A stretch of DNA of 64,000 nucleotides from Escherichia coli (GTDB taxonomy: Bacteria; Pseudomonadota; Gammaproteobacteria; Enterobacterales; Enterobacteriaceae): the NCBI RefSeq assembly GCF_013122565.1, contig NZ_CP053258.1, one strand, 5' to 3'. Each line of letters begins with the position of its first letter. Positions within the stretch are counted from its first letter, which is position 1. This document shows, in pieces, positions 1,348 through 11,947 of the stretch. Position numbers and translations under genes: made by a program. The notes beneath the pieces were generated by a model. It saw only the letters and a list, made by a program, of their open reading frames with translations, was not told the DNA's origin and searched no databases.

Positions 1348-1380
1348 TGGCCCGATGGTGATTCCATCGGGCTATTTTTA
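1348..1380. terminator. Putative bidirectional intrinsic terminator between the convergent ccmH and narP genes
   Basis: GC-rich hairpin (cccgatgg…ccatcggg) followed by a T-rich run, immediately after the ccmH stop. Confidence 0.5.
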
Positions 1381-2025
1381 TTGTGCCCCGCGTTGTTGCA
1401 GGAACAGAATGGTGGCCGCCACGCGTGAGCGGACATTGAGTTTACGCAGCAGATTGCGAATATGTACTTTTACTGTCTGCTCGGAAATATTCAACACCGA
1501 GGCAATTTGTTTATTTGACAGCCCCTGTGCCAGCTCGTGCAGAACATCCAGCTCGCGCTCCGTCAGCACGCTGAAGGGATCTTCTTCCGCGCCAAACATT
1601 TCACGTTCACGCAAGTACTGATTGACGCGTTCGCTAAAGACTTTGCTGCCTTTCGCTCCGGCACGAATCGCTTCCAGCAACACTTCCGGGTCGCTGTCTT
1701 TCAACAGATAACCGTCTGCGCCTGCGTCTATCAGCGCAAAGACATCGCTGGAGGCATCTGATACGGTCAGGATAATAATTTGCGCGGTAACGCCATCCCT
1801 GCGCAAGGCATTGAGGGTATCCAGGCCACTCATACCTTTCATATTGAGATCCAGCAAGATCACGTCGATATCCAGTCTATTCGCCAGATCGATAGCACTC
1901 GCGCCGTCGCCTGCTTCGGCGACCACTTCAAAGCCAGGATCAAGCTCCAGTAACTGACGAACACCGCGTCGCATAAGTGGATGATCATCCACAATCATCA
2001 CCTGAAAAGGCGTTGCTTCAGGCAT
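1378..2025 (-). CDS. narP: Nitrate/nitrite response regulator NarP (NarL/FixJ family)
   Basis: Translation starts MPEATPFQVMIVDDHPLMRRGV…; receiver domain plus LuxR-type HTH; start trimmed to the internal ATG giving 215 aa. Confidence 0.9.
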   Translation of the reverse strand: MPEATPFQVMIVDDHPLMRRGVRQLLELDPGFEVVAEAGDGASAIDLANRLDIDVILLDLNMKGMSGLDTLNALRRDGVTAQIIILTVSDASSDVFALIDAGADGYLLKDSDPEVLLEAIRAGAKGSKVFSERVNQYLREREMFGAEEDPFSVLTERELDVLHELAQGLSNKQIASVLNISEQTVKVHIRNLLRKLNVRSRVAATILFLQQRGAQ

Positions 2026-2344
2026 AGTAGTCTCCTGAGGTTTTATTAGAATCATTATGTTTGAGCGTAGCGTTGGTAACGCTACCAGGCGCGTGAATGT
2101 TACCCCATTTTATGTATGGACATGTAGTGAAAACTACAACCTTGTCGTTCGCTTCGGCATCATTTTCATTATAAAGACGGAATTTTGCATCAGCTTCTCA
2201 TCAAGAAAAACACCTAAAAAATCAATCACAATACTTGTGCATTTCTTTAAACAGTTTTTAAAAACTGACTCCGGGTATGGAGCTATGGGTATTTTCCGTA
2301 CCCAATGCTTTTAACAGCAATTAATTTCATAGGATGAAAGCTCA

Positions 2345-4936
2345 ATGCATCAATCTGGTTCTGTTTCTCTTTGTCGTTCCGCAATATCTGTTCTGGTGGC
2401 TACAGCGTTATATTCACCCATAGCATTGGCATCAACAGTTGAGTATGGTGAGACAGTTGATGGTGTTGTCCTGGAAAAAGATATCCAGCTGGTTTATGGG
2501 ACCGCCAATAATACGAAAATCAATCCTGGCGGAGAACAGCATATTAAAGAATTTGGTATAAGTAGTAATACTGAAATTAACGGCGGGTATCAGTACATTG
2601 AAATGAATGGCACCGCAGAATACTCCGTATTAAATGATGGTTATCAAATTGTTCAAATGGGTGGCGCGGCAAACCAGACTACCCTCAATAATGGTGTGCT
2701 ACAGGTTTATGGCGCAGCGAATGATCCCACGATTAAAGGCGGGCGCTTAATCGTTGAAAAAGATGGGATTACCGTCCTTGCCGCTATCGAAAAGGGAGGA
2801 TTACTGGAGGTTAAAGAGGGGGGGTTAGCGATTGCGGTAGATCAGAAAGCCGGCGGTGCTATTAAAACAACCACGCGGGCCATGGAGGTATTCGGAACAA
2901 ACCGTCTCGGTCAGTTCGATATCAAGAATGGTATTGCTAACAATATGCTGTTGGAAAACGGCGGAAGTTTGCGAGTTGAAGAAAATGACTTCGCTTATAA
3001 TACTACTGTAGATAGTGGCGGCTTACTGGAGGTTATGGATGGCGGGACTGCAACTGGCGTTGATAAAAAAGCAGGCGGAAAATTAATTGTCTCAACGAAT
3101 GCGCTGGAAGTGAGTGGTACAAACAGTAAAGGCCAATTTAGTATAAAAGATGGTGTGTCAAAAAATTATGAACTGGACGATGGTTCCGGGCTCATTGTTA
3201 TGGAGGACACGCAGGCCATTGATACTATCCTTGATGAGCATGCCACTATGCAATCGCTGGGAAAGGATACTGGTACGAGAGTGCAGGCAAATGCGGTATA
3301 TGATCTGGGTCGATCAGATCAGAATGGAAGTATCACGTATTCCTCTAAAGCCATCTCTGAAAATATGGTTATCAACAATGGCCGCGCTAATGTCTGGGCA
3401 GGCACAATGGTTAACGTTTCAGTCAGAGGGAATGATGGCATTCTTGAGGTCATGAAGCCGCAAATAAATTATGCACCCGCTATGTTGGTGGGTAGTGTCG
3501 TGGTTTCTGAGGGCGCTTCTTTAAGAACGCATGGTGCCGTGGATACCAGCAAAGCGGATGTTTCGCTCGAAAATAGCTCATGGACCATCATTGCCGATAT
3601 CACTACGACGAACCAAAACACCCGCCTCAATTTAGCCAACCTTGCGATGTCTGGCGCAAATGTGATTATGATGGATGAGCCAGTGACTCGTTCATCTGTG
3701 ACGGCAAGTGCGGAAAATTTCACTACGTTGACCACCAATACCCTGTCGGGAAACGGCAATTTTTATATGCGTACCGATATGGCTAATCATCAGAGCGATC
3801 AGCTCAACGTCACCGGACAGGCAACAGGTGATTTCAAAATATTCGTGACGGACACCGGTGCCAGCCCGGCAGCAGGAGATAGCCTTACACTGGTAACAAC
3901 GGGCGGCGGTGATGCTGCATTTACGTTGGGCAATGCCGGAGGCGTTGTTGATATCGGTACGTATGAATATACCTTGCTGGATAATGGCAATCATAGCTGG
4001 AGTCTGGCAGAGAATCGCGCGCAAATTACCCCTTCAACCACTGATGTGCTAAATATGGCGGCAGCACAACCGCTGGTATTTGATGCAGAACTGGACACCG
4101 TGCGTGAGCGTCTTGGTAGCGTAAAAGGCGTTAGTTACGATACGGCGATGTGGAGTTCGGCAATTAACACCCGCAACAACGTGACCACTGATGCGGGCGC
4201 TGGTTTTGAGCAAACATTGACGGGCCTGACGCTCGGTATCGATAGCCGTTTCTCCCGTGAAGAAAGCAGTACAATTCGCGGCTTGTTCTTTGGTTACTCT
4301 CATTCTGATATTGGTTTTGATCGCGGCGGCAAAGGCAATGTCGATAGCTATACCCTGGGTGCTTATGCCGGTTGGGAGCATCAGAACGGTGCCTATGTTG
4401 ATGGGGTGGTGAAAGTTGACCGTTTTGCCAACACCATCCATGGCAAGATGAGTAATGGGGCAACAGCGTTTGGCGATTACAATAGTAACGGCGCGGGTGC
4501 TCATGTTGAGAGCGGGTTCCGTTGGGTTGACGGATTGTGGAGTGTTAGACCCTATCTGGCCTTTACCGGCTTTACCACAGATGGTCAGGACTACACGTTA
4601 TCAAACGGCATGCGCGCGGACGTGGGAAATACCCGGATATTACGCGCTGAAGCGGGAACGGCGGTAAGCTATCACATGGACCTGCAAAACGGTACGACGC
4701 TGGAACCCTGGCTGAAAGCCGCCGTGCGTCAGGAATACGCCGATTCTAACCAGGTGAAAGTTAATGACGATGGCAAATTTAATAATGATGTGGCTGGAAC
4801 CAGTGGCGTTTATCAGGCTGGGATAAGGTCATCGTTTACCCCGACGTTAAGCGGTCATTTGTCAGTCAGCTATGGCAATGGCGCAGGGGTAGAATCACCG
4901 TGGAATACTCAGGCGGGTGTGGTCTGGTCGTTCTGA
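2345..4936 (+). CDS. yejO: Adhesin-like autotransporter (type Va secretion), apparently intact, 863 aa
   Basis: N-terminal signal peptide, repetitive Gly/Thr/Asn-rich passenger region, C-terminal beta-barrel translocator ending in …AGVVWSF; located next to tRNA-Pro and narP. Confidence 0.8.
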   Translation: MHQSGSVSLCRSAISVLVATALYSPIALASTVEYGETVDGVVLEKDIQLVYGTANNTKINPGGEQHIKEFGISSNTEINGGYQYIEMNGTAEYSVLNDGYQIVQMGGAANQTTLNNGVLQVYGAANDPTIKGGRLIVEKDGITVLAAIEKGGLLEVKEGGLAIAVDQKAGGAIKTTTRAMEVFGTNRLGQFDIKNGIANNMLLENGGSLRVEENDFAYNTTVDSGGLLEVMDGGTATGVDKKAGGKLIVSTNALEVSGTNSKGQFSIKDGVSKNYELDDGSGLIVMEDTQAIDTILDEHATMQSLGKDTGTRVQANAVYDLGRSDQNGSITYSSKAISENMVINNGRANVWAGTMVNVSVRGNDGILEVMKPQINYAPAMLVGSVVVSEGASLRTHGAVDTSKADVSLENSSWTIIADITTTNQNTRLNLANLAMSGANVIMMDEPVTRSSVTASAENFTTLTTNTLSGNGNFYMRTDMANHQSDQLNVTGQATGDFKIFVTDTGASPAAGDSLTLVTTGGGDAAFTLGNAGGVVDIGTYEYTLLDNGNHSWSLAENRAQITPSTTDVLNMAAAQPLVFDAELDTVRERLGSVKGVSYDTAMWSSAINTRNNVTTDAGAGFEQTLTGLTLGIDSRFSREESSTIRGLFFGYSHSDIGFDRGGKGNVDSYTLGAYAGWEHQNGAYVDGVVKVDRFANTIHGKMSNGATAFGDYNSNGAGAHVESGFRWVDGLWSVRPYLAFTGFTTDGQDYTLSNGMRADVGNTRILRAEAGTAVSYHMDLQNGTTLEPWLKAAVRQEYADSNQVKVNDDGKFNNDVAGTSGVYQAGIRSSFTPTLSGHLSVSYGNGAGVESPWNTQAGVVWSF

Positions 4937-5000
4937 TAACAGAAAATAAACAGGCTGTGATGTGTCGCGGTCTGTTTATCGAATTAAATGCAGATATAAA

Positions 5001-5030
5001 AAAACCAACCGTAAAGGTTGGTTTTTTTTG
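5001..5030. terminator. Bidirectional intrinsic terminator (serves yejO on + and tRNA-Pro on -)
   Basis: Hairpin aaccaacc-gtaaa-ggttggtt flanked by an A-run upstream and a T-run downstream. Confidence 0.65.
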
Positions 5031-5037
5031 GGATTTT

Positions 5038-5114
5038 TGGTCGGCACGAGAGGATTTGAACCTCCGACCCCCGACACCCCATGACGGTGCGCTACCAGGC
5101 TGCGCTACGTGCCG
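5038..5114 (-). tRNA. proL: tRNA-Pro
   Basis: 77-nt sequence on the minus strand reading CGGCACGTAGCGCAGCCTGGTAGCGCACCGTCATGGGGTGTCGGGGGTCGGAGGTTCAAATCCTCTCGTGCCGACCA, with a paired acceptor stem, T-loop GGTTCAAATCC and encoded CCA. Confidence 0.85.
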
Positions 5115-5188
5115 ACTCGTGGCTGTTAATACTACCGTTTTCCACACCGATTGCAAGTAAGATATTTTGCTAACTGATTTATAATTAA

Positions 5189-6949
5189 TCAGTTAGCGAT
5201 AAAACGCTTCTCGTCTGTCAGTACTTGCAATAACAAACTTAACTGTGGTTTTTCATCTTTCACTCTTTCACCACGTAAGTTGTAAGTACGGTATTTACCG
5301 TTATTGTTCAGCACCAGCGTCTTTTTCGGGGTGGTAATTGCCAGCGTATCGTTATCCGCGGCGGTAACCCAGTAATGACGGCGTTGAGGGTTGAACAAAT
5401 CCTGACCTTGCGAATATTCGCTGGCAGGTGTGCTGACATGTAGCAGGCGTTGCATCAGCGTCGTCATCAGATCGGTATGATCAGTCAGAGCATTAATACG
5501 CTGCGCCGGCGTGCCTGGCCAGTGAATCACTAATGGTACCTGCAGATGACCGTGGGACCAGTCAAAGGTTTCTTCCTCTTCGCTCAGCGGAATACCCCGA
5601 CCGGCAGTGATAATCACCACCGTATTGTCCAGTTTGCCAGAATCACGCAGTGCATTGAGCACGCGGTTGATCTGGTCATCGACATTGCCTGCCGCCCGGC
5701 TATATTTCCGTGAAAATGCCTGCTGATTGCTGTCGTCAATGTTAGTGCCATTGAAAGAGACCCACGAGAACCAGCGGTTATCTTCTTGTGCGTAGCGGCC
5801 CAGCCAGTTGATCCACTGCGTGGCGGTCTGCTCGTCGGATTGGGTGCGTACGCTCGGCATCGAGAAATCTGACAACAATGCCTGGCGATACAGCGGGCTG
5901 GTAAAGCCATCTGACGAGAATAACCCCAGCTGATAGCCTTGCTGATTAAGCGCAGTAATTAACGCCGCAGGGGTACGGGTCGACAGAATGCCGTCCATAT
6001 AGCTCGGCGAGATGCCATAGAACAGGCCAAAGATGCCGTTGTCTGTAGTGTTGCCGGAGCTCATATGGCGCGTGAACGAAATATTTTGCTCAGCAAAACC
6101 TGCCAGCGCAGGCATCTGCTTCTCGAAGCGTGAGTAGTTCAGGCCATCGACAGTAATCAACAGCACATTCTGCCCAGTGCCCATATCGCGATAGCGCAGT
6201 TCGCTTAACGGATACTGAACGGAAACGGCGTCTGGATTACCTTGCTCAATAAGACGGCGTTGATACTCCTGCGCATCAAGCAGGCCATGCTTCTCAAGAA
6301 AACGTCGCGCCGTCATCGGGTACGAAAGCGGCAGGTTAGCGCGCTGCATGGTGATCGGGCGATAGAAGTTGGCATCGGCCCAGATATACACCACATGCGA
6401 GGCGATAAAGGCGATAAATAAGAATGCGGCCAGCGGGCGCGCGAAGCGTCGACGACGCGTCAGGCTGCGCAGCTTTTGCCAGCTCCACGTCGCAAACACC
6501 AGTTCAAGCAATAAAATAACCGGCACGCTGATGAACATCAGCTGCCAGTCGCGCGCCATCTCATTTTCGTCTGGGTTGATAACCAGTTGCCAGACGATGG
6601 GATTAAGATGGAGATGGAAACGAGTAAAGACTTCGCTATCGATCAGTAATAGCGTCATTCCCGCCGTTGCCAGAATGACGGACAAAAACCTCATCAGCCT
6701 CTGGGAGCCGACGATAAAGGTCAGCGGGAAGAGGATTAGCAAGTAGGTGGCAAACACCAGGAAGCTGAAATGGCCGATAATGCTTACGTAGGAATAAATG
6801 CGACCAGCAAGCGTGGTCGGCCAGTCGGCGATAAACAGGTAACGGCTGCCAATGACGAGCGAAAGCAGAATATTGAACAGTGCAAACCAGTGCCCCCAAC
6901 TGACCATCTGGGAGACTTTTTCACGGTAGCGCTGACGATGAGTTACCAT
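5189..6949 (-). CDS. yejM: Inner-membrane sulfatase-fold protein YejM/PbgA (regulator of LPS/cardiolipin homeostasis)
   Basis: 586-aa ORF with five N-terminal transmembrane helices and a periplasmic alkaline-phosphatase/sulfatase-like domain; conserved position. Confidence 0.9.
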   Translation of the reverse strand: MVTHRQRYREKVSQMVSWGHWFALFNILLSLVIGSRYLFIADWPTTLAGRIYSYVSIIGHFSFLVFATYLLILFPLTFIVGSQRLMRFLSVILATAGMTLLLIDSEVFTRFHLHLNPIVWQLVINPDENEMARDWQLMFISVPVILLLELVFATWSWQKLRSLTRRRRFARPLAAFLFIAFIASHVVYIWADANFYRPITMQRANLPLSYPMTARRFLEKHGLLDAQEYQRRLIEQGNPDAVSVQYPLSELRYRDMGTGQNVLLITVDGLNYSRFEKQMPALAGFAEQNISFTRHMSSGNTTDNGIFGLFYGISPSYMDGILSTRTPAALITALNQQGYQLGLFSSDGFTSPLYRQALLSDFSMPSVRTQSDEQTATQWINWLGRYAQEDNRWFSWVSFNGTNIDDSNQQAFSRKYSRAAGNVDDQINRVLNALRDSGKLDNTVVIITAGRGIPLSEEEETFDWSHGHLQVPLVIHWPGTPAQRINALTDHTDLMTTLMQRLLHVSTPASEYSQGQDLFNPQRRHYWVTAADNDTLAITTPKKTLVLNNNGKYRTYNLRGERVKDEKPQLSLLLQVLTDEKRFIAN

Positions 6950-8385: not shown

Positions 8386-8765
8386 ATCTCCAACGCGAAT
8401 GTTTCTTTTCGGAGAAACAGTTGCGGGATAATCACAATTCTTGTCAATCAGTTAGTGAGATGACTTGCTGATTGACCTTTCATTCGAAAATGTTTTCTCT
8501 GTTATTATACTTAGTGTTACTGAAAATATTATTCTCTTATCCCCTTTATTCGATAATAAATCGGTCTGGTCACTATTTCCGCCGTTTTTTGTGAGCTGTA
8601 ACACTGGAAAAATCATTCTGTTTAATTATATTGAGTTTACTTGGCGTTATATGTTGTTATTTGCTTTGACTATATAAAATGCAAATGTATTCTTAATGTC
8701 AATATTATTGTCGTTATGTTTGACTCATTATATTAATCGTATGAATAGTTTTAAGGATTCACCGC

Positions 8766-9338
8766 ATGGAGCAAGAAAATCCTGAAGATAGAAAGTGTTG
8801 TCGACCGAAAAAAACGTTCTCTTTAACCAGAAAATTACTGGTATGTTTTATCTTTACCCTCATTGTATTCAGTGGTTGTTTATTTGTCGTTATGAACACG
8901 GTCATTCATAACACCAGCACTGACAGCTTTTGCCTGGGTTGTCATGAAATGAAAGACAACATCCTTACCGAGAGTTTCAAAAAATCCATTCATGGCAGTA
9001 ATCGTACTGGCGTGAAAGTCGCTTGTGCCGATTGCCATATTCCTGATGAATTTGTCCCTAAGATGATCAGAAAAGCCCACGCCGTTAAAGAGGTTTGGGG
9101 GCATATGACAGGCGTAATTGATACGGCCGATAAATTCGATGCACATCGTGGCGAAATGGCAAAAGCGGAATGGGCAAGAATGAAAGCAAACAATTCGCAG
9201 GAATGCAGAGACTGCCACGATATTTCTAAATTACAGAAAAAATTTATGGCGCCGTTCCATGAGGCTTCTCTTAAAGAAGGGAAAACATGCATTGATTGTC
9301 ATGCCGGCATTGCACATAAATTACCAGCAGTTCATTAG
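8766..9338 (+). CDS. NapC/NirT/CymA-family membrane-anchored tetraheme cytochrome c (putative quinol dehydrogenase)
   Basis: 190-aa ORF with an N-terminal transmembrane helix and four CxxCH heme-binding motifs (CLGCH, CADCH, CRDCH, CIDCH); AAGGA Shine-Dalgarno sequence 8 nt upstream; AT-rich codon usage. Confidence 0.85.
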   Translation: MEQENPEDRKCCRPKKTFSLTRKLLVCFIFTLIVFSGCLFVVMNTVIHNTSTDSFCLGCHEMKDNILTESFKKSIHGSNRTGVKVACADCHIPDEFVPKMIRKAHAVKEVWGHMTGVIDTADKFDAHRGEMAKAEWARMKANNSQECRDCHDISKLQKKFMAPFHEASLKEGKTCIDCHAGIAHKLPAVH

Positions 9339-9431
9339 TCATTAATACATGAATGTCATGTCTGTCTGGTTTCAAATAAAAACAAGAAGGGTTTCATGTT
9401 GATTTAAGTTTTTATGTAAAAGGACCATGTT

Positions 9432-11072
9432 ATGAGGAAACTAAAAAGGGGATTCTTATTGGCTGGGGTATTAACGGCACTTTCTCTAAGCGCTTATGCT
9501 GACAGAAATATGAATAAGATCCCGCATATCAATCTGTCGAATCCATCCGTCGAACCAGTTAGTGAGAGAATAATCCAAACAGATATTGTTGTTATTGGCG
9601 GTGGGCTTTCTGGCATGTCCGCAGGGTTGACTGCAGTACAGGGCGGAGCCAAAGTTGTTATTTTTGAAAAACTACCAAGCCTTGGAGGGGCAGGCGTTTA
9701 TCCTGAAGGCAGTTTAGGCATTGGCACCCTTATGCAAAAAAAAGAGGGGAAAGGTGCCACGCTGAATCAAGCCTTTGGTAAGGCGATCGATTTCCATCAC
9801 TGGCGAGCCAATGCTAGTGCATTGCACGCATTAATGAAAAACTCAGGCGAAACCATTGATTGGGTTGCCAGTAATGGCGTTGAGTTTACGACCTTAAAAA
9901 CCACCATTTATCCTCAGTCAGATTCATTATGGACCTGGCATATGTATAAGCATAATGGTGCATCTGTTACTAAAAGCTTTTACAAGAAGATCCTTGATGG
10001 AGGTGGGCAAATCTACACCGAAACTCCTGTTAAGAAGATTCTTCGCGACAAACAAAGCGGTGATGTCGTTGGCGTCGAAGCGGTTAATAGCGTAACAGGG
10101 GAAAAAATCATTGCCTATGGTAAGGGTGTGATTGTGGCGACCGGTGGTTTTGCCAACAACCGTGACATGATTGAAAAATACATCACCGATGTGAATCAGA
10201 AAAACATGGTGCCGGTCAAACTACGTGGCCCCCTGATTGATGGACGCGAAGGCGATGGTATCAAAATGGGGCAAGACATTGGCGCTGATACTGCCGGGAT
10301 GCAAACCATTGCTGGCAATAGCCCATATGTCGATCAAGACCCTCCTATCCGTCAGTTTAATGGCGCGGATTACCAAAAACAGGCCAGAACGTCATTAAGC
10401 CAGCCATTCCTGTGGATTAACCGACAAGGCGAGCGTTTCTTTGATGAGTCACTCGGTTCCAGTTTTACCCTCGTTTATAACGCTATCACCATGAATGGCG
10501 GAGTCATGTATTCTGTCTGGGATGATGCAATGCGCCAGAAGATGGTTAACGAAGGGCCGGTTACACCGTTTAACGCCATCGTGTTGCCTGGGCAGCCGAT
10601 GAAGGCGCTGGATCAGGCGATCGAAATCGGCATGAAAGAAGGGTGGTTATTTAAAGGTGAAACGTTGGACGATCTGGCAAAACAGATCAATGTTCCTGCA
10701 GACAATCTGAAAGCGACGATTGCGAAAGTAAACAAGTATACGGATGAAGGTTTCGATCCTGACTGGGGGCGCAAGAAAGAGCATCTGTTTAAATTTCAGG
10801 ATAAAGGACCGTATTACGCCGTGAAAGGTATTCGGGCTTATTTCCTGACGCTGGGTGGTTTGAAAATGAACAGCGATCTGCAGGTCTACGATACCAATGA
10901 GAAGATTATCCCAGGTCTGTATGTTGTCGGGCAGGATATGGGCGGTCTGTATGACAGCTCCTATGATTTGGTACTTGAAGGATCGGCTTCTGGCTTTGCG
11001 TTGACGTCGGGACGTATGGCAGCGAAACATATTATAAGCACCAGAGTGCAGGCACAGGGAGGAGGCAAATGA
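9432..11072 (+). CDS. Periplasmic FAD-dependent flavoprotein reductase, fumarate-reductase/flavocytochrome-c family (substrate unknown)
   Basis: 546-aa ORF; signal peptide MRKLKRGFLLAGVLTALSLSAYA; dinucleotide-binding fold VVIGGGLSGMSAG; C-terminal FAD-binding motif of the FrdA/SdhA family (…GLYVVGQDMGG…); its stop overlaps the next start (ATGA). Confidence 0.85.
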   Translation: MRKLKRGFLLAGVLTALSLSAYADRNMNKIPHINLSNPSVEPVSERIIQTDIVVIGGGLSGMSAGLTAVQGGAKVVIFEKLPSLGGAGVYPEGSLGIGTLMQKKEGKGATLNQAFGKAIDFHHWRANASALHALMKNSGETIDWVASNGVEFTTLKTTIYPQSDSLWTWHMYKHNGASVTKSFYKKILDGGGQIYTETPVKKILRDKQSGDVVGVEAVNSVTGEKIIAYGKGVIVATGGFANNRDMIEKYITDVNQKNMVPVKLRGPLIDGREGDGIKMGQDIGADTAGMQTIAGNSPYVDQDPPIRQFNGADYQKQARTSLSQPFLWINRQGERFFDESLGSSFTLVYNAITMNGGVMYSVWDDAMRQKMVNEGPVTPFNAIVLPGQPMKALDQAIEIGMKEGWLFKGETLDDLAKQINVPADNLKATIAKVNKYTDEGFDPDWGRKKEHLFKFQDKGPYYAVKGIRAYFLTLGGLKMNSDLQVYDTNEKIIPGLYVVGQDMGGLYDSSYDLVLEGSASGFALTSGRMAAKHIISTRVQAQGGGK

Positions 11073-11479
11073 GTAAGCTATTGAAGAACATTGTCACAAT
11101 CATTCTTGCTGGCGTAATGTGCACCGTTATCGGTATGGTTTCTGCCAGTGCACAAGAGATTGTCGGCATGAAAATGCACAAGACCATTGGTCTGGAATGT
11201 AATAACTGCCATGTTGATGATGTTAAAGCCAACAAGAATATGACGCCAACGTGCGTTAGCTGCCATGCGCCTGGTGAGCGTTATTATCATGGTAAGAAGG
11301 ATTCAGAAGGTAACTCAGTGTTAAAAGAGTATCCGGAGTCGGGTAAAACACGAGTTGCGTCTTTCCATGACTCTCATGGCGGGGAAATTCGCTGTACGGT
11401 ATGCCATACGTCACATGAGAAGGAACCACAGCCACTCTATTGCAACAACTGCCATCAGTTTGATGTGAAGATTAAGTAG
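11069..11479 (+). CDS. Small periplasmic tetraheme cytochrome c
   Basis: 136-aa ORF with N-terminal signal/anchor and four CxxCH motifs (CNNCH, CVSCH, CTVCH, CNNCH); strong GGAGG ribosome-binding site; translationally coupled to the flavoprotein gene. Confidence 0.8.
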   Translation: MSKLLKNIVTIILAGVMCTVIGMVSASAQEIVGMKMHKTIGLECNNCHVDDVKANKNMTPTCVSCHAPGERYYHGKKDSEGNSVLKEYPESGKTRVASFHDSHGGEIRCTVCHTSHEKEPQPLYCNNCHQFDVKIK

Positions 11480-11504
11480 TGAAGGTATTTGTCAGTCGCT
11501 GAAA

Positions 11505-11537
11505 AAGAAAACGGCCCGTAAAGGCCGTTTTCTTTTG
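11505..11537. terminator. Bidirectional intrinsic terminator between the cytochrome gene (+) and rplY (-)
   Basis: Hairpin aaacggcc-cgtaaa-ggccgttt flanked by an A-rich stretch upstream and a T-rich stretch downstream. Confidence 0.65.
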
Positions 11538-11554
11538 TTCAACTTATTCAGCAA

Positions 11555-11947
<393 letters not shown>

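Follow-up and report, generated by a model that had tools for sequence, protein, structure and literature searches.

The intact autotransporter gene yejO between narP and proL in an Escherichia coli chromosome, and its two-unit passenger repeat

Does the long open reading frame beside a proline tRNA gene in this E. coli chromosome encode a surface autotransporter, is its intactness a peculiarity of the strain, and can the repeats in its passenger domain change its length? These questions arise from the original prediction, made on the stretch of 64,000 nucleotides analysed here (the window), which named the gene yejO and proposed that the strain retains a functional adhesin. On the evidence set out below, we consider it very probable that the gene is an intact chromosomal orthologue of yejO, encoding a classical (type Va) autotransporter of the AIDA-I/Ag43-like group that is ancestral at its locus and is likely an adhesin or aggregation factor.

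Identity and architecture of YejO

The frame had been described as uninterrupted and 863 aa long, and it proved to run from ATG to stop with no internal stop codon. Its product matches WP_171460606.1/QJU27709.1 ('autotransporter YejO') exactly, and this match, together with the narP-yejO-tRNA-Pro-yejM synteny, confirms the name; we take YejO of E. coli to be UniProt P33924. The protein shares 98.6% amino-acid identity with the representative of its 90%-identity cluster (16,859 members) and is 97-99% identical to the common alleles, and its high identity to annotated YejO and its position from narP to proL/yejM place it in the YejO orthologue group. Nothing substantial separates it from other E. 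coli copies such as WP_000554226.1, which is the same gene in the same place between narP and proL; the private substitutions of the window allele relative to a three-sequence consensus amount to a handful, for example S384, L393, S412, R427, G437, T460, V666 and S862. The window copy is therefore already known, and finding it here is a correct but ordinary observation. The coding features are as follows.

2345-4936, plus strand: yejO coding sequence, 863 codons plus stop, ATG start, intact (open reading frame list, exact protein match)
2345-2431, plus strand: Sec-type signal peptide, aa 1-29 (inspection: n-h-c regions, AxA; predicted cleavage between ALA and ST)
2432-4024, plus strand: passenger, aa 30-560, right-handed beta-helix of AIDA/Ag43 type (Pfam, TIGR04415, PDB sequence matches, AF2, Foldseek)
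3635-4009, plus strand: Pertactin-type domain, aa 431-555, autochaperone region (PF03212, E 7.2e-45, model positions 2-120/121)
4031-4120, plus strand: alpha-helical linker plugging the barrel pore, aa 563-592 (AF2 helix, pLDDT >90)
4142-4933, plus strand: 12-strand outer-membrane beta-barrel, aa 600-863 (PF03797, TIGR01414, AF2, Foldseek)

The N-terminus reads MHQSGSVSLCR, followed by SAISVLVATALYSPI and by ALA before ST. The signal peptide that had been predicted was recognized by inspection only, from an n-region with Arg11 and a hydrophobic core of 18 residues ahead of the cleavage motif, and AF2 leaves residues 1-27 disordered (pLDDT <50), with the beta-helix beginning at about residue 31. 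In the predicted structure (mean pLDDT 85 over the whole protein), the helix spans aa 31-561 as a ladder of short strands with pLDDT 80-97, except at aa 166-192 and 447-455. Two strong AIDA repeats (PF16168, aa 184-245 and 257-315, both E <= 1.5e-21) are preceded by weaker copies N-terminal of the first; the TIGR04415 strand-loop-strand repeat scores 62.7 bits against a cutoff of 30, and the passenger also has a weaker period of 19 aa, as AIDA-type rungs typically do. By these three signs, YejO has the AIDA-type rungs of about 19 aa that characterize self-associating autotransporters (SAATs). PDB sequence searches with the passenger match Ag43 and TibA, and Foldseek ranks Ag43 best (7koh/7ko9, E 1e-17). 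The Pertactin-type domain matches pertactin itself (1dab/2iou), and its autochaperone role is presumed from knowledge of the family.

The beta-barrel also proved complete on profile analysis: PF03797 covers aa 602-841 at model positions 1-254/255 (E 2.6e-45), TIGR01414 scores 372 bits against a cutoff of 16, and AF2 draws 12 long strands with pLDDT >90. The closest barrel in Foldseek is the BrkA beta domain (TM 0.88-0.89), followed by EspP, Hbp and NalP (0.72-0.86); the linker helix has its counterpart in the barrel-domain structures of BrkA, EspP and NalP, which are the best barrel matches. The chain ends in ...VVWSF, with the terminal Phe present. A signal peptide (by inspection) and a complete 12-strand barrel with an aromatic end, joined in the predicted structure by a helical linker inside the barrel, a beta-helical passenger and an autochaperone domain, are the features of a type Va autotransporter.

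Among known autotransporters, Antigen 43 (Flu/Cah) comes closest to the passenger in both sequence and fold, and shares with YejO the AIDA-type rungs, the beta-helical passenger, the pertactin-type autochaperone and the 12-strand barrel. However, YejO is not its orthologue: the Antigen 43 equivalog model NF033177 gives 132 bits against a cutoff of 1200, structural alignments yield 18-24% identity, and the YejO passenger is shorter. AIDA-I and TibA (4q1q, a PDB match) share with it the Pfam AIDA repeat and the TIGR04415 'O-heptosylation target' repeat, but the AIDA-I equivalog model NF033176 reaches only 71 bits against 1200, the repeat region of YejO is much shorter, and no heptosyltransferase gene of the aah/tibC type adjoins yejO, whose neighbours are narP and tRNA-Pro.

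The locus, its history and its distribution

The gene is flanked by the following features.

2056-2344, plus strand: narP-yejO intergenic region, 289 bp, 37.7% GC, presumed yejO promoter/regulatory region
4998-5028, both strands: bidirectional intrinsic terminator common to yejO (plus) and proL (minus), A7-CCAACC-GTAAA-GGTTGG-T8 (terminator scan match)
5038-5114, minus strand: tRNA-Pro, anticodon GGG, proL (ARAGORN; Rfam RF00005, 54.9 bits)

A Dam/OxyR switch with a GATC cluster in the regulatory region is a defining feature of agn43. The 289-bp region upstream of yejO contains no GATC site, so that a phase switch of this type is absent and was rejected as a candidate here. The promoter of yejO is listed elsewhere as 'PyejO putative' (PMC11677980).

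The arrangement downstream is as had been foreseen, with a symmetric terminator hairpin and then the tRNA. The hairpin is equally stable on either strand, with folding energies of -16.4 and -15.6 kcal/mol (z -4.3 and -5.3), and none of 200 shuffles folded as well. We take the tRNA gene to be proL, GGG being the proL anticodon in K-12 and the synteny being conserved; it is annotated at the same position in all E. coli records inspected, and an Rfam scan of positions 1900-5300 found no structured RNA or leader besides it.

The suggestion that this tRNA is an integration site holds for other strains. In EC052 an integrase-bearing island occupies the site, in the yejO-proL gap, and the match to the window breaks inside the 3' end of the tRNA; in S. 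flexneri 1c a gtrIC prophage remnant lies at the same tRNA (PMC4924310). In the window, nothing is integrated at the tRNA, and the open reading frame list holds no integrase between narP and yejM. The possibility that yejO itself is island cargo was rejected on this ground and on those of its near-universal presence and of its occurrence at the same site in divergent Escherichia. A divergent Escherichia contig, with flanks that share only 88-89% identity with the window, carries a 76%-identical orthologue in the same ccmH-narP-yejO-yejM-yejL-yejK context, which indicates that yejO is older than E. coli. Judged from this comparison, yejO is ancestral at this locus in Escherichia and was not delivered by an island at the adjoining tRNA. 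Measured against this orthologue, dN/dS comes to 0.20 for the whole protein, with 0.065 for the barrel and 0.30 for the passenger; a value of about 0.2 indicates purifying selection and argues for a YejO function that has been maintained.

Retention of an intact gene had been presented as a property of this strain. The gene is indeed complete, including the barrel, but this is not unusual. The narP-yejO-proL-yejM locus is found in 5425 of 5426 complete E. coli genomes, of which 4281 cover at least 80% of the yejO locus; inspection of 15 E. coli records and one divergent Escherichia contig bore out the synteny, and of ten full-length copies sampled, nine are intact with 863 aa, among them those of O157:H7, E. 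coli B and ETEC. We estimate from these sequences that about one in two sequenced E. coli has an intact yejO and that the 863-aa form is the common state.

The statement that yejO is disrupted in K-12 was accurate. In BW25113 an IS5, which the window copy lacks, lies after codon 23, within the signal peptide segment, in agreement with a published report of an IS5 interruption (PMC11005336). Transcripts of yejO were detected in 106 of 3376 RNA-seq data sets (PMC10392735), a figure that concerns the K-12 copy disrupted by IS5. Inactivating events seen in other copies comprise IS5, IS2 and IS3 insertions, internal stops and deletions of 1.6-1.8 kb, and inactivation that recurs so often and independently points to selection that is weak or conditional. 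The gene has been reported as absent from ST131 (PMC5654935), and Wells et al. (2010), as cited in PMC3426408, are given as finding YejO in commensal and diarrhoeagenic genomes and a truncated form in UPEC.

Repeat units and passenger length variants

The passenger had been described as containing repeated units of about 80 aa. The repetition is real, but protein self-alignment resolves it into two adjacent units of 74 aa.

2798-3019, plus strand: repeat unit 1, aa 152-225, 74 aa (protein self-alignment)
3020-3241, plus strand: repeat unit 2, aa 226-299, 74 aa (protein self-alignment)

The units align without gaps at 36 of 74 residues (49%), with a Smith-Waterman score of 173 against 26.8 +/- 5.3 for 2000 shuffles (z = 27.6); the AF2 segment of low confidence at aa 166-192 falls within unit 1. 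They are best read as copies of one block of rungs that was duplicated long ago within the gene. A repeat at the DNA level was rejected, as the repetition is visible only in the protein: TRF (minimum score 30) and a direct-repeat search found nothing at 222-bp spacing in yejO.

A passenger shortened by exactly one unit, in register, occurs naturally as a form of 789 or 790 aa in 277 of 5426 complete genomes, the deletion junction being scored by BLAST identity band. In CPEC80 (789 aa), for example, codon 167 of unit 1 is joined to codon 242 of unit 2 at AAAGC...GGCGG; WP_000554212.1 is a deposited protein of the 789-aa form. The identical junction is also present in a second allele background, about 93% identical, and the 29 informative sites to the left and right of it all belong to that background; the deletion therefore arose twice independently and, as far as these alleles tell, through the same short homology.

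The proposal that the repeats could support recombinational size variation is thus upheld in part, in that the loss of one unit has occurred twice in nature. That the repeats actively recombine or drive phase variation, altering passenger length at appreciable frequency, is another matter, and we regard it as very unlikely. The exact one-unit deletion and its recurrence in two backgrounds speak for it; however, the units share 53% identity in DNA with a longest common run of 13 nt, and are therefore no substrate for ordinary homologous recombination, a run of this length falling below the needs of RecA-dependent recombination. TRF recognizes no tandem repeat, no three-unit allele appears among 120 listed homologues, and the remaining differences in length come from unrelated deletions or from a duplication in another part of yejO. 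Two events over thousands of genomes point to rare short-homology deletions rather than to a switch. Slipped-strand phase variation was likewise rejected, the sole tract being a G7 run at 2818-2824 in unit 1 (G6A in CPEC80), too short for a contingency locus.

Two further length classes were set aside. A 935-aa allele owes its extra 72 aa to 216 bp of the pertactin domain that are perfectly duplicated in tandem, and not to repeat expansion; this allele comes from a metagenome assembly, and its duplication, which is unrelated to the 74-aa units, is possibly an assembly artefact. A 771-aa class of homologues consists of fragments without 17 N-terminal and 75 C-terminal residues, which are pseudogene products and not variants. 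Because a deletion of one unit (74 aa, roughly four rungs) arose twice and reached about 5% of sequenced genomes, one may also speculate that diversifying selection acts on passenger length, with the duplicated block serving as a removable length module that keeps the helix register. We give this idea little credence; if it were true, a shorter beta-helix could be favoured in some surface contexts, such as particular O-antigen or capsule lengths.

Function and alternative readings

By analogy with the family, the signal peptide of 29 aa would direct YejO through Sec to the periplasm, where BAM would insert the C-terminal 264 residues as a 12-strand barrel with helix 563-592 in its pore; the passenger (aa 30-560) would be threaded to the surface, where folding would start at the pertactin-type autochaperone end and build a beta-helix with rungs of about 19 aa. 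The most likely role of such a protein, on the analogies drawn here, is that of a putative surface adhesin or cell-cell aggregation factor. To call it a functional adhesin, as had been done, appears overstated: that role is read from domain content, the scores of 132 (NF033177) and 71 bits (NF033176) against 1200 mean that adhesin activity is not transferable by orthology, and the literature that could be searched yielded no YejO data on adhesion, aggregation or surface display. Expression in culture is probably poor, and the gene may be dispensable enough for loss in many lineages.

The last two expectations lead to a different reading, in which the frame is intact but cryptic, transcriptionally silent and decaying, and contributes nothing to the phenotype of the strain. 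We consider this possible but doubtful. The upstream region (37.7% GC) and the 5' part of the gene (GC3 0.40 in the passenger vs 0.52 in the barrel) are AT-rich, and DNA of this kind is a target of H-NS silencing; a simple consensus scan found no consensus sigma-70 promoter in the narP-yejO intergenic region, and disruptions have occurred independently in many lineages. In K-12, moreover, yejO stands near the bottom of the expression ranking (PMC10392735). Against this, the low dN/dS at genus-level divergence, particularly in the barrel, indicates long-term selection on the protein, and about half of E. coli genomes keep the gene intact. Silence in laboratory culture is also usual for functional E. 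coli adhesins. Alternatively, YejO may be a surface autotransporter with a non-adhesive role, for example in serum or complement resistance like BrkA, BafA and Vag8, to whose translocation units its barrel and linker are similar in both fold and sequence; its C-terminal part is matched best by Vag8 (7akv, E 2.8e-36), BrkA (3qq2) and the BafA C-terminal model (NF040482, 215 bits). This appears improbable, as the likeness is confined to the C-terminal transport unit, which does not set passenger function; the passengers are functionally unrelated and below family cut-offs, the NF040482 score lies far under its cutoff of 700, and the YejO passenger itself resembles those of Ag43, TibA and AIDA-I.

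The putative adhesin or aggregation factor described here adds little by way of discovery, as the gene and its name are on record, and so are its disruption in K-12 and the differences in intactness between pathotypes. YejO is a predicted surface protein, conserved widely in E. coli and under purifying selection, and a strain other than K-12 is needed to study it. The natural 863-aa and 789-aa forms provide a ready pair for asking whether the length of the beta-helix affects function.

The yejO locus and its product

The yejO gene was originally predicted to be a single intact reading frame beside tRNA-Pro. The frame runs without interruption from its ATG, and the tRNA-Pro call by ARAGORN is matched by Rfam. 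Between the two genes a terminator scan matched a hairpin, and the same 13-bp hairpin forms on either strand (-16.4 and -15.6 kcal/mol; z = -4.3 and -5.3), with 0 of 200 shuffles folding as well. Because of this symmetry, 'bidirectional terminator', as it had been called, is a fair name.

Features of the yejO locus
291-1343, ccmH, upstream of yejO
1378-2055, minus strand, narP, upstream of yejO
2345-4936, plus strand, yejO, 863 codons
4998-5028, both strands, hairpin terminator A7-CCAACC-GTAAA-GGTTGG-T8
5038-5114, minus strand, tRNA-Pro (anticodon GGG)
5189-6949, minus strand, yejM, downstream of yejO, with yejL and yejK beyond it

The C-terminal β-barrel that had been claimed is complete on HMM analysis: the Pfam autotransporter barrel covers aa 602-841 (model positions 1-254 of 255, E = 2.6e-45), preceded by a Pertactin domain at aa 431-555 (E = 7e-45) and by AIDA repeats, strong at aa 184-245 and 257-315 and weaker nearer the N-terminus. 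In NCBIfam, TIGR01414 matched aa 456-863 (372 bits, cutoff 16), and the strand-loop-strand repeat TIGR04415 was also matched. The equivalog models for Ag43, AIDA-I and BafA scored far under their cut-offs (132, 71 and 215 bits, where 1200, 1200 and 700 are required). Sequence matches in the PDB were Ag43, Vag8, TibA, BrkA and pertactin. In an AlphaFold2 model built from a 70-sequence alignment (mean pLDDT 85), the signal peptide is disordered, short strands form a ladder at 31-561, a helix spans 563-592 and twelve long strands occupy 600-862; in Foldseek searches the passenger matched Ag43 (E = 1e-17) and the barrel matched the BrkA β domain (TM 0.88-0.89), as well as EspP, Hbp, NalP and AIDA-I. 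The C-terminus (...VWSF) keeps the terminal aromatic residue. By every feature that can be tested in sequence, YejO fits a classical type Va autotransporter.

Distribution and genomic surroundings

The protein is identical to NCBI 'autotransporter YejO [Escherichia coli]' (QJU27709.1/WP_171460606.1) and its 90%-identity cluster numbers 16,859 sequences. The 3.2-kb locus was matched in 5425 of 5426 complete E. coli genomes, with at least 80% coverage in 4281 and less in 1145 (~21%). The original statement that yejO is a disrupted pseudogene in K-12 proved correct: in BW25113, IS5 follows codon 23, within the signal peptide, and the rest is flagged as a pseudogene by PGAP. Ten full-length collinear matches were taken at even intervals along the ranking: the 2592-bp coding sequence is intact in nine, with O157:H7, E. 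coli B and one ETEC among them, and the tenth has an internal stop. Forty evenly spaced rows of the genome match list supplied other states, namely IS2 or IS3 insertions, IS5 in K-12 derivatives, 1.6-1.8 kb deletions leaving a remnant (RM14723 and GPEC464), and, in EC052, an internal stop together with an island that carries an integrase and separates yejO from the tRNA. By a rough estimate, yejO is intact in slightly more than half of complete E. coli genomes; an intact copy is not unusual. This agrees with the account in PMC3426408 of Wells et al. (2010), in which every commensal and diarrhoeagenic genome had YejO and every UPEC genome had it truncated, and with the reported absence of YejO from ST131 (PMC5654935).

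Some strains have an island between yejO and the tRNA-Pro 3' end; that of EC052 (NZ_CP169224.1, L005 9058-15058) encodes a DUF6387 protein, an AlpA regulator and two tyrosine recombinases, among others. Matches to the window break at ~5041-5057, within the tRNA 3' end, in three rows of the match list (H27, H28 and H30), and a gtrIC prophage remnant of S. flexneri 1c occupies the same site (PMC4924310). That yejO itself is island cargo was ruled out, as its 76%-identical orthologue P0075 has the same context (ccmF-dsbE-ccmH-narP-yejO-yejM-yejL-yejK) on a divergent contig. Its flanks share only 88-89% identity with the window, which amounts to between-species divergence within Escherichia.

Elsewhere in the window, a 3.1-kb low-GC (33-45%) insert of three genes separates yejK from rplY.

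Genes of the yejK-rplY insert (8400-11560)
8766-9338, NapC/NirT-type tetrahaem cytochrome, 190 aa
9432-11072, FAD flavoprotein with signal peptide, flavocytochrome-c family, 546 aa; top NCBIfam match vinyl phenol reductase VprA, under its cutoff
11069-11479, small cytochrome with four CxxCH motifs, 136 aa

The insert resembles a reductase module that would pass electrons from quinol to a substrate in the periplasm. Sensitive blastn matched it in none of the 5426 complete E. coli genomes, where rplY directly follows yejK. Cryptic Escherichia clades and E. albertii have annotated proteins identical or nearly so to those of the insert, which probably makes it an ancestral trait of Escherichia that mainstream E. 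coli has lost. Over positions 1-25000 the best identity to any of the 5426 complete RefSeq genomes is just 98.6-98.9%, and the YejM sequence was absent from the protein collection searched. GenBank lists the source strain as E. coli, but it seems to come from a lineage outside the sampled diversity, possibly a cryptic clade.

An old duplication and the repeated loss of one unit

The passenger was predicted to contain repeats of about 80 aa; the repetition is real, and the two segments originally quoted begin adjacent units, but each unit is 74 aa long.

Repeat units of YejO
aa 152-225, unit 1, 74 aa
aa 226-299, unit 2, 74 aa, adjoining unit 1

The units align without gaps and are identical at 36 of 74 positions (Smith-Waterman 173 against 26.8 ± 5.3 in shuffles, z = 27.6), over a fainter 19-residue periodicity typical of AIDA-type rungs. 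As DNA they are 53% identical, with a longest in-register identical run of 13 nt, and neither TRF nor a repeat finder picked them up. The pair is an old internal duplication, found in P0075 as well, and not a fresh tandem repeat. Unit 1 contains a G7 homopolymer (2818-2824, codons E158-G160; G6A in strain CPEC80), possibly a frameshift-prone site and too short for a contingency tract.

In the 789-aa YejO of CPEC80, exactly residues 168-241 are gone, one unit in register. The junction lies within AAAGC, followed by one mismatch and then GGCGG, motifs common to equivalent positions of both units. A 100-bp probe spanning this hybrid junction was matched at ≥99% identity in 277 of 5426 genomes; for ordinary alleles the figure is only 80-90%. 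The same deletion occurs in a separate, ~93%-identical allele lineage (P0066, 790 aa), where the homology shared at the junction is longer, at least AAAAAGCAGGCG. At 29 of 29 informative sites on both sides of that junction, within a few hundred bases, the deleted allele agrees with its own lineage rather than with the window type, and the deletion has therefore arisen at least twice, via short homology.

Other length variants are unrelated, namely deletions of 40 aa and 34 aa, and a 935-aa YejO on a metagenome scaffold (L008, ERZ28629027, 2918-3350) with a 100%-identical 216-bp tandem duplication within the pertactin/autochaperone domain, either a very recent event or an assembly artefact. 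The 790-aa allele (L007 1501-3873, GCA_036602895.1) is a mosaic, of the ~93% lineage at every informative site in its 5' two-thirds and by turns of that lineage and of the window type in its 3' third, which indicates intragenic recombination among yejO alleles.

Selection and possible role

With a GC3 of 0.40, the passenger half is AT-richer than both the barrel (0.52) and the genes around yejO, and it is diverging faster (81% against 89% DNA identity). In a Nei-Gojobori comparison with P0075, dN/dS comes to 0.20 for the whole protein; by region it falls from 0.30 (passenger) through 0.125 (pertactin domain) to 0.065 (linker and barrel). YejO has therefore evolved under purifying selection, which is the strongest argument at hand that intact alleles are functional. 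By analogy with its family, YejO would be exported through Sec, its barrel inserted with the aid of BAM and its passenger translocated C-to-N as a hairpin, folding vectorially with the pertactin-type autochaperone as nucleus, so that a ~530-residue β-helix would be displayed at the surface.

Our literature search found no functional study of YejO. Since the passenger is kin to those of Ag43, TibA and AIDA-I, a role in adhesion or aggregation is our best guess. Alternatively, yejO could be a silent relic, as suggested by the AT-rich upstream DNA without a consensus promoter, the near-zero expression of the disrupted K-12 gene (PMC10392735) and the frequent losses, but the purifying selection on YejO argues against this. 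A different surface role such as complement resistance is another alternative; however, the likeness to BrkA, Vag8 and BafA is limited to the transport unit. The repeats might also serve as an active length-switching device, yet deletion is only a rare evolutionary outcome, and no three-unit allele was found among the 120 relatives listed. The recombinational size variation originally proposed holds in that rare form, and not as a recombination hotspot or switch. Overall, the original observation and identification of yejO stand, and its interpretation is supported in part. The gene and its annotation were on record before; the sole mildly new point is that a 74-aa block has been lost in register more than once.
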